Below the pieces are notes generated by a model, which had not been told where the DNA came from, made no database searches, and saw only the letters and a program-made list of their open reading frames with translations. DNA of 61,433 nt from a virus. Its lineage: Duplodnaviria > Caudoviricetes. The number at the start of each line of letters is the position of its first letter. Within the stretch, counting starts at the first letter, position 1. A program made the position numbers and the translations under genes. The stretch covers positions 1-61,433 of the IMG/VR virus record IMGVR_UViG_3300035701_000031. One strand, given 5' to 3'. Of this stretch, positions 48,518 to 48,870 are shown one piece after another.

Positions 48518-48870
48518 TTAGACCCTTCTACCGAAAAGGTTTCCGAAGCCCCCAACGCCGTTTCTCAAAACTGCGAAGAGTGCGCCAAAGACCAAGACTA
48601 CAGCACCAAGCATGAGTCCCGAGTATCAAATAAAAAATCTTAACGAGATTTCTTAATTTGATTATACCGAACATCTGCCCGATGTTAGCAGCCTGCATAT
48701 TTACTCCCTGAACAATGCCATTGAATATTAAGTTCCAATTGCTCAATTTCGTTTTTAAAAAACGAATAAAGGGCAATCGAGAGAACATACCGCTAATGGC
48801 GTTGAACAGAGGGTCTATATTTTAACCCAAATCGGAATTGTTTAGAACTCCAATTTGTTAGGTCAGCCAT
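48518..48870 (-). CDS. putative major coat/virion membrane protein (73 aa) in four exons: 48870-48859, 48821-48781, 48729-48663, 48619-48518
   Basis: SD GGAGGT; spliced product MADLNIDPLFNAISGMFSIFNGIVQGVNMQAANIGQMFGIGLMLGAVVLVFGALFAVLRNGVGGFGNLFGRRV aligns gaplessly to 30684-30893; coat function is inferred. Confidence 0.88.
48620..48662 (-). other. BHB-type intron 3 (43 nt, frameshifting)
   Basis: UC GGUA UA^A UCAAAUUAAGAAAUCU-CGUUA-AGAUUUUUUAUUUGA UACU CG^G GA. Confidence 0.87.
48730..48780 (-). other. BHB-type intron 2 (51 nt, in frame)
   Basis: GGUAU GUUC UC^U CGAUUGC...GCAAUUG GAAC UU^A AUAUU: complete motif with 5-bp exon helix. Confidence 0.88.
48822..48858 (-). other. BHB-type intron 1 (37 nt, frameshifting)
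   Basis: GACC UA^A CAAAUUGGAGUU-CUAAAC-AAUUCCGAUUUG GGUU AA^A: 4-bp helix, 3-nt bulges, 12-bp intron stem; exon-exon helix weak. Confidence 0.85.

Follow-up and report, generated by a model that had tools for sequence, protein, structure and literature searches.

The locus between positions 48518 and 48870 on the minus strand of the virus record IMGVR_UViG_3300035701_000031 raises the question of how a small gene can encode a conserved protein when its reading frame is interrupted three times. The stretch analysed, called the window below, is the whole IMG/VR record of 61,433 bases, a linear sequence with a guanine-cytosine (GC) content of about 0.35, estimated by CheckV to be 36% complete, whose long open reading frames (ORFs) lie almost all on the minus strand. 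In the ORF list of the window the gene, hereafter the split gene, is visible only as fragments of 29, 86 and 31 amino acids (aa). Judged from the sequence, it is probable (roughly 0.8) that the interruptions are three genuine archaeal introns of the bulge-helix-bulge (BHB) type in the messenger RNA (mRNA) precursor of a 73-aa membrane protein, and that their carrier is an uncultured, probably archaeal virus.

The structure of the gene, which in all its parts is on the minus strand, was read off the sequence and then recomputed by script. Exon 1 (48870-48859, 12 nucleotides, nt) holds the start codon and three further codons and contributes, with bases 7-10, the exonic side of the central helix of intron 1. 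It is followed by intron 1 (48858-48822, 37 nt, after codon 4, phase 0), exon 2 (48821-48781, 41 nt), intron 2 (48780-48730, 51 nt, inside codon 18, phase 2), exon 3 (48729-48663, 67 nt), intron 3 (48662-48620, 43 nt, after codon 40, phase 0) and exon 4 (48619-48518), which supplies 33 codons (99 nt) and the stop and codes for a hydrophobic helix with a basic tail. A Shine-Dalgarno-like hexamer, GGAGGT (48882-48887), was read from the sequence 11 nt 5' of the start codon. The stretch 48620-48858 begins and ends exactly at the outer limits of introns 1 and 3, and removal of the three inserts leaves 73 codons (219 nt). Computed translation of the unspliced RNA gave a peptide of only 25 aa. An earlier reading of the bare sequence (the original prediction) had given exon sizes of 12, 41 and 67 nt, which were confirmed to the base, and had held that introns 1 and 3 shift the frame, making their splicing obligatory, which is borne out by their lengths of 37 and 43 nt, both 1 mod 3. 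Its arithmetic for intron 2 was likewise correct, as this insert consists of 17 stop-free codons and its retention would give a product of 90 aa. The introns had also been described as differing in phase, which holds for intron 2 but not for introns 1 and 3, both of which are in phase 0. That the introns have no evident sequence in common agrees with a blastn-short comparison, in which matches within the window set did not exceed 9 nt. No further copies of the introns were found elsewhere in the window. Their GC content is 0.23-0.32, against 0.47 in the exons.

The boundaries of the inserts are defined by homology. Exon 2, intron 2 and exon 3, translated in one frame, were used as the query against a collection of 5.8 billion proteins. 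This search returned one cluster with two members, P0001 and P0002, both of 73 aa and both encoded by single uninterrupted ORFs on contigs of the Joint Genome Institute (JGI). The two proteins are colinear with the spliced product of the window over all three junctions. Because the spliced 73-aa product matches uninterrupted relatives, the extra stretches in the window are insertions. A further homologous-protein search found only the cluster of P0001 itself, and the same kind of search with the 86-aa fragment ORF found nothing.

The inserts were examined for the archaeal BHB motif, which consists of a central helix of 4 base pairs (bp) flanked by two bulges of 3 nt, each cut after its second base. 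The motif of intron 1 (48822-48858) has the central helix GACC/GGTT with four of four pairs, the bulges TA|A and AA|A, and an inner helix of 12 bp. In intron 2 (48730-48780) the central helix is GTTC/GAAC, the bulges are TC|T and TT|A, and an inner helix of 7 bp is accompanied by a second hairpin; the motif of intron 3 (48620-48662) combines the central helix GGTA/TACT with the bulges TA|A and CG|G and an inner helix of 6 bp, with more pairing beyond. Together with the four inserts of a near-identical relative, the metagenome contig L001 described below, seven inserts could be compared. In 7/7, four of four central pairs (G-U allowed) and 3-nt bulges are present at the homology-defined boundary, and an abutting inner helix (h') of 5-12 contiguous bp follows. 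The outer, exonic helix (h) has 1, 5 and 2 contiguous bp in the window and 1, 0, 3 and 0 in L001. Intron 2 is the only one of the window's three introns with the full hBHBh' motif, and the weak exon helices that had been claimed for introns 1 and 3 are real, with one and two outer pairs, respectively. As a control on the boundaries, exactly one of the one to four equivalent placements of each of the seven inserts passes the BHB filter, and among neighbouring boundary pairs obtained by sliding, 13 of 3071 pass. With ViennaRNA the BHB fold came out as the structure of lowest energy for four of the seven inserts, and for the other three it lies within 0.2-1.6 kcal/mol of the minimum. This geometry supports the view that the inserts are putative introns of the BHB type. 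Self-splicing introns of group I or group II were considered and set aside: a search with Rfam at gathering thresholds detected no self-splicing intron or other family in the window, and the inserts are just 37-51 nt long, whereas such introns run to hundreds of bases. ARAGORN found no transfer RNA (tRNA) gene in the window.

Further evidence came from L001, a single metagenome contig of 2855 nt obtained in a scan. Its gene order is that of the window: the tail of a gene for a 168-aa protein, a paralogue of the split gene (65 aa and uninterrupted, at 50023-50220 on the minus strand of the window, identified from the family alignment), a LAGLIDADG gene, the small gene itself and the start of a gene for a large protein. 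The LAGLIDADG gene (48879-49964, minus strand, 361 aa) is a free-standing homing-endonuclease-like ORF; 9 nt separate its end from the start codon of the split gene, and it is found upstream in L001 too. Upstream of the split gene the two genomes are 91% identical in nucleotides. The copy of the split gene in L001 has four BHB introns (within 1572-1839), with inner helices of 5-11 bp and outer helices of 0-3 bp, and only intron 1, at the same site and identical in 36 of 37 positions, is common to both genomes. The second intron of L001 (43 nt) lies inside codon 30, the third (40 nt) inside codon 39, 4 nt upstream of the site of window intron 3 and unrelated to it in sequence, and the fourth (22 nt) after codon 46. 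Window intron 2 is absent from L001, P0001 and P0002. Apart from the pair of first introns, the longest blastn-short match among all these introns was 9 nt. The two genomes define six distinct insertion sites within 219 coding nucleotides, separating exons of 12-77 nt from one another and from a final exon of 81-99 nt.

The spliced product of L001 has 73 aa and differs from that of the window in one residue. Comparison of the spliced frames revealed 21 synonymous codon differences and one non-synonymous difference among the 73 codons. This ratio of 21:1 indicates that the spliced frame is under selection in either genome, and hence that the gene is functional and depends on being spliced. Identity along the locus is mosaic, with 36 of 37 positions identical in intron 1 and 77 of 78 in the stretch 3' of the stop codon, but 25 differences in 222 coding nucleotides. 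Since L001 has three introns at new sites and shares only intron 1 with the window, and since uninterrupted alleles exist, independent and recent gains of the introns are strongly supported by the sequences. This is in line with the original prediction, which had proposed independent gains as well as a comparison of intron positions in homologous genes, and had named identical sets fixed across distant relatives, with no junction-spanning spacers, as counter-evidence to target evasion; as regards the intron sets the opposite was found, as L001 carries a different set, P0001 and P0002 are uninterrupted and several contigs lack individual introns.

Some smaller features of the introns were noted in this comparison. 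Five of the six distinct introns (37, 43, 43, 40 and 22 nt) have a length of 1 mod 3, leaving window intron 2 (51 nt) as the sole in-frame insert, a pattern that by a simple binomial has a chance of about 2%; frame-shifting inserts may be favoured, or the numbers may simply be small. Window intron 2 and L001 intron 3 (1756-1795) each lie 2 nt after an exonic ATGTTC and use the same helix GTTC/GAAC. The two are otherwise unrelated except for a match of 8 nt close to the 3' end of each, which stops one base before the cut, and their likeness may reflect convergence or a common origin. The serine codon cut by intron 2 reads TCA in the window (48779-48784 + 48729) and AGT in L001 (1660-1668), where the intron is missing, and both flanking codons also differ silently. 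A switch between TCA and AGT needs at least two changes, and gene conversion may have carried the exon flanks along with the intron, or the flanks may have become adapted to the motif.

Presence and absence of the introns were also observed in contigs of four sediment runs (X1-X4). In X1, a contig of 8227 nt reproduces the window stretch without a difference. One contig of X2 joins across intron 1, the 17 letters in between spelling the start codon plus three more of the conserved protein. Contigs of X2 and X3 join across intron 2 with exon letters of the L001 type; an X2 contig joins across intron 3, and loose ends in X2 and X4 pass straight through that site in frame. The conserved reading frame is maintained by the letters at every joint. 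Introns 2 and 4 of L001 recur in loose ends of X3. The X2 contig without intron 1, which retains the 3' end of the LAGLIDADG gene, also covers the region of intron 2 (14 differences in 93 nt), and this shows that the introns occur in different combinations. Given the silent differences in the flanks, the intron-less contigs represent other alleles and not spliced transcripts of the window allele.

From these data the following course of splicing may be proposed. After transcription each intron would fold into its own hairpin (helix h'), and the four exon bases ending 2 nt before the 5' cut would pair with the four intron bases ending 2 nt before the 3' cut. This pairing would leave two bulges of 3 nt, each of which the tRNA-splicing endonuclease EndA of the host would cut after the second base. 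A host ligase of the RtcB type would then join the exons, and only the fully spliced mRNA would encode the conserved protein. The introns themselves would be young, independent insertions, gained and lost at the level of strains.

Several points weigh against the interpretation as spliced BHB introns. The cut position within the bulge is taken from the general rule for archaeal BHB motifs. The BHB filter taken alone gave 1340 matches on the coding strand against 1309-1422 in ten dinucleotide shuffles; the motifs gain their significance because they coincide with the homology-defined boundaries, not from the filter. In five of the seven motifs the outer helix has only 0-2 bp, so that most are of the relaxed HBh' form, and a strict EndA is not expected to cut motifs with so short an outer helix (PMC5829648). 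No match to EndA was found in the virus record, itself estimated to be 36% complete, and a TnpB element is the only lead to the host. The contigs of the sediment runs were aligned to positions 48300-49100 of the window at 85% likeness, some of the joints have short sides of 23-29 nt, a class flagged as doubtful, and the runs are presumed, by guess, to be of DNA. L001 and run X3 are perhaps not independent of each other, and the identical X1 contig may be the source of the window. Finally, no RNA runs are listed for this DNA, so splicing is predicted from its letters.

The properties of a possible host were considered in this context. Five of the seven motifs are without a proper outer exon helix, which means that the enzyme of the host would have to take relaxed substrates of the HBh' type, and it may fairly be inferred that the host EndA would accept them. 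The TnpB (IS605-family) element of the window (35815-37092; TnpB ORF 35870-37063) has 75-78% protein identity and 76% DNA identity to contigs of three DPANN genome bins, assigned to an uncultured archaeon, Candidatus Woesearchaeota and Candidatus Iainarchaeum, which have nothing else in common with the virus. A DPANN host is thus suggested by a weak lead. Each of these bins (L005-L007) contains one EndA ORF of 172-180 aa, and RtcB is present in two of the three. The EndA ORF of 172 aa aligns best with the chains of M. kandleri, N. equitans (alpha) and M. jannaschii and may have an alpha4 or an (alpha-beta)2 architecture. According to PMC5829648, only (alpha-beta)2 and epsilon2 enzymes were known to cut relaxed motifs, and an alpha4-type EndA with an extra loop in several DPANN lineages accompanies heavily disrupted tRNA genes. 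Indirectly, the EndA traits of the DPANN bins fit a host that would tolerate weak outer helices.

Why the introns gathered in this gene can be answered less firmly than what they are. We lean towards tolerated insertions that would pile up in a recombination hot spot beside the homing-endonuclease gene. In such a near-neutral or selfish process, to which we give somewhat less than an even chance, a relaxed EndA would make any insertion of a BHB-forming hairpin harmless, gene conversion near the endonuclease gene would shuffle the alleles, and the clustering would reflect a local hot spot of recombination or repair without any benefit. The mosaic identity between the window and L001 and the alleles with differing intron combinations favour this account. 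It also has parallels in archaeal tRNA genes, namely the recurrent arrival of introns, by a route not identified, at splice-competent sites in Asgard archaea (bioRxiv 10.64898/2026.10.13.758758) and the intron transposition inferred in Thermoproteales (PMC4090602). What argues against it is that no obvious frame-breaking insert was seen elsewhere on the coding strand, so that a neutral process would have to be very local. ORFs of at least 60 aa leave only 13 gaps of at least 150 nt on that strand, and frame-breaking introns are concentrated in the split gene, with the qualification that in-frame introns inside long ORFs would escape this check. A search for BHB-like pairs joining two long frames gave 91 candidates, a yield at the level of noise for a genome whose genes crowd one strand, and the best of these extra intron candidates, at 35334-35368, is an ordinary ATGA overlap of stop and start.

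The local process just described is slightly likelier than its main competitor, already raised in the original prediction, in which the introns would be adaptive because they interrupt conserved DNA targets in a gene that is unable to change its protein. This second account is possible, with the odds clearly against it. The attackers could be CRISPR spacers of the host, the neighbouring LAGLIDADG enzyme, homing endonucleases of rival viruses or RNA-guided nucleases, and different lineages would answer with different introns. In its favour, the six insertion sites chop the gene into short exons, the intron set varies between near-identical genomes, and strong purifying selection on the protein limits escape by amino-acid change. 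Moreover, besides the LAGLIDADG gene 9 nt upstream, the genome contains at least five more endonuclease-like genes, two inteins and TnpB, and collaborative homing by an ORF-less intron and a free-standing endonuclease is known from cyanophage psbA (PMC6083498). On the other hand, 21 of the 73 codons differ synonymously between the relatives, so silent change offers escape as well; the 3' end of the endonuclease gene is still present in the X2 contig that lacks intron 1, and this intron is thus not needed for self-immunity; and one endonuclease accounts for one target site, not six. A search for spacers with 19.9 kb of the window (41500-61433) among 401 genomes of one phylum, that of genome G002, found no spacer-like match to the split gene. 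It returned about 115 short matches in 99 of the 401 genomes, of which five were inspected and none lay inside a repeat array; the recurrent matches at 41844-41915 fall in an A-rich stretch coding for Lys and Glu and look compositional. Returning to tolerated insertions in a hot spot, the breaking of nuclease or guide target sites could be a possible, unproven bonus. If both elements are combined, the locus might be a live arena of intron birth, in which hairpin insertions recur in an essential, highly constrained viral gene and the spliced mini-introns shield DNA targets from homing endonucleases or guide-directed nucleases, a scenario that we put forward tentatively and with low confidence.

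Regulation by splicing is an improbable alternative. Here splicing would wait on EndA and RtcB of the host, or retention of intron 2 would give a functional variant of 90 aa. Splicing by an endonuclease and RtcB does gate the HAC1 and XBP1 mRNAs of eukaryotes, which was counted in favour of gating. A role of RtcB in XBP-1 splicing is described in PMC8718801. Intron 2 is in frame and free of stops, and when intron 1 is folded together with its flanks, the minimum-energy structure pairs the region of the start codon with exon 2. Against this stand the uninterrupted alleles and the other intron sets of close relatives, which show that no single intron is required. The 90-aa isoform in particular is unlikely, because intron 2 has the fullest motif and should splice best, is missing in L001, P0001 and P0002, and would split the conserved N-terminal part, placing 17 unconserved residues between conserved positions of the family.

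That nothing is spliced at all, the gene being a decaying pseudogene, a site of ribosomal bypass or an assembly artefact, would fit the origin of the window in a single metagenome assembly and the purely predictive nature of splicing, and is nevertheless very improbable in view of the 21:1 ratio on the spliced frame, of the BHB core at the right bases in 7/7 inserts and, as regards an artefact, of the identical X1 contig (with its possible role as source) and the recurrence of the L001 arrangement in loose ends of X3. Programmed bypass as in gene 60 of phage T4 needs matching take-off and landing codons; at the split gene the flanking codons are unmatched (for intron 1, CTA before the insert and TAA at its end), and intron 2 lies inside a codon.

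The probable BHB introns were compared with known systems. Archaeal ribosomal RNA (rRNA) introns such as that of I-DmoI carry LAGLIDADG endonuclease genes inside long introns. They resemble the split gene in tying BHB-type splicing to LAGLIDADG mobility in archaea, and differ from it in that the endonuclease of the split gene is encoded outside its introns, which are non-coding and only 22-51 nt long. The cbf5 gene of Crenarchaeota is the named case of an endonuclease-spliced intron in an archaeal protein-coding gene; its pre-mRNA intron underwent lineage-specific gain and loss (PMC2738675; Watanabe 2002 and Yoshinari 2006, cited in PMC5829648). Like the split gene, cbf5 has a short BHB-type intron that is removed by the tRNA-splicing endonuclease. 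Whereas cbf5 is a cellular housekeeping gene with one intron that changes at the level of orders, the split gene is viral, has three introns (four in L001) and differs between genomes that are about 90% identical. The hosts differ too, Crenarchaeota for cbf5 as against the DPANN lead for the split gene.

Archaeal tRNA genes with multiple introns (PMC4090602; PMC3293823; bioRxiv 10.64898/2026.10.13.758758), among them those of a Caldiarchaeum population with intron heterogeneity (PMC3293823), share with the split gene several short BHB introns, recurrent gains and heterogeneity between strains. In contrast to tRNA, a structural RNA whose mature fold helps to build the motif, the split gene is transcribed into an mRNA, its introns are unrelated to one another and its carrier is a virus. 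The psbA gene of cyanophage S-PM2 with F-CphI (PMC6083498) likewise has an endonuclease gene next to introns without ORFs, in a virus with many homing elements, and mobE of T4 with I-TevIII is a further parallel for collaborative homing (PMC2790892). In such systems, and possibly at the split gene, an intron could protect its carrier genome against the endonuclease that this genome itself encodes. The introns of the cyanophage and of T4 are self-splicing group I ribozymes, unlike those of the split gene, which would depend on a protein enzyme of the host, and the allele that lacks intron 1 and keeps the end of the endonuclease gene argues against a strict homing link for intron 1.

A full-text search of the freely accessible papers found no report of BHB introns in a viral protein-coding gene. 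The route by which archaeal introns are gained is treated as an open question in bioRxiv 10.64898/2026.10.13.758758 and PMC4090602. With six sites in a gene of 219 nt, each occurring with and without its intron among near-identical genomes, the locus offers before-and-after sequences of such gains and could serve as an uncomplicated substrate on which to probe the limits of relaxed cutting by a host EndA. If introns are indeed born here repeatedly, it would be a natural system in which to follow archaeal intron gain between strains. If target-breaking were true, the introns would represent a new kind of counter-defence that works via the tRNA-splicing machinery of the host, and protein-spliced mini-introns would be a fast-evolving shield in conflicts between viruses and between virus and host. 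Gene callers will miss or fragment genes of this kind in archaeal viruses.

The protein encoded by the split gene belongs to a small family. A profile search of 1.84 billion representative proteins revealed four stand-alone proteins of 57-73 aa and three larger ones of 310-387 aa; two of the nine matches, P0006 and P0010, look spurious, being repeat-rich and unrelated. In the larger proteins (P0003, P0008 and P0009) the module forms a C-terminal anchor after a signal peptide and a repeat-rich, propeller-like ectodomain. Hydropathy analysis of the spliced product predicted one membrane helix at about residues 37-58. Its description as a coat protein in the original prediction was an assumption, as neither Pfam nor PHROG gave a family match to the 73-aa protein at meaningful E-values. 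Because giant secreted proteins are its neighbours, the product may be a small membrane-anchored protein of the virion or envelope. No relatives were detected in viral contigs with the family alignment, with P0001 or with a 28-nt pattern from exon 4, nor with the 1737-aa neighbour, the LAGLIDADG protein or P0003; genome contigs searched with the family alignment gave none either. In a phage collection P0001 found no match, and the DUF7447 protein had only weak matches to bacterial phages.

Other elements of the window and of L001 were recorded as follows. Between the 65-aa paralogue and the split gene stands only the LAGLIDADG gene, which looks like an optional insert between paralogous small genes. 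In L001 (1540-1570) the LAGLIDADG frame runs 8 nt into the start of the small gene, its stop overlapping the region of the start codon. The genome is dense in selfish elements. Genes of the NUMOD3/HNH type are located at 3203-3964, 10413-11372, 34057-34803 and 60144-61109, and a further endonuclease-like ORF at 42444-42785. The two inteins reside in an XPB/Rad25-like helicase (20056-22644, minus strand), where the intein carries a LAGLIDADG domain, and in an ORF of 503 aa (32542-34053, minus strand). Adjacent genes for an R2K-clade ATP-grasp protein and a RlaP nucleotidyltransferase, families described from RNA-repair systems, occupy 5452-6917 on the minus strand. A metabolic-looking cluster at 16647-19593 on the same strand comprises a DeoC-type aldolase, a methyltransferase, an HpcH/HpaI aldolase and a SIS-domain protein.

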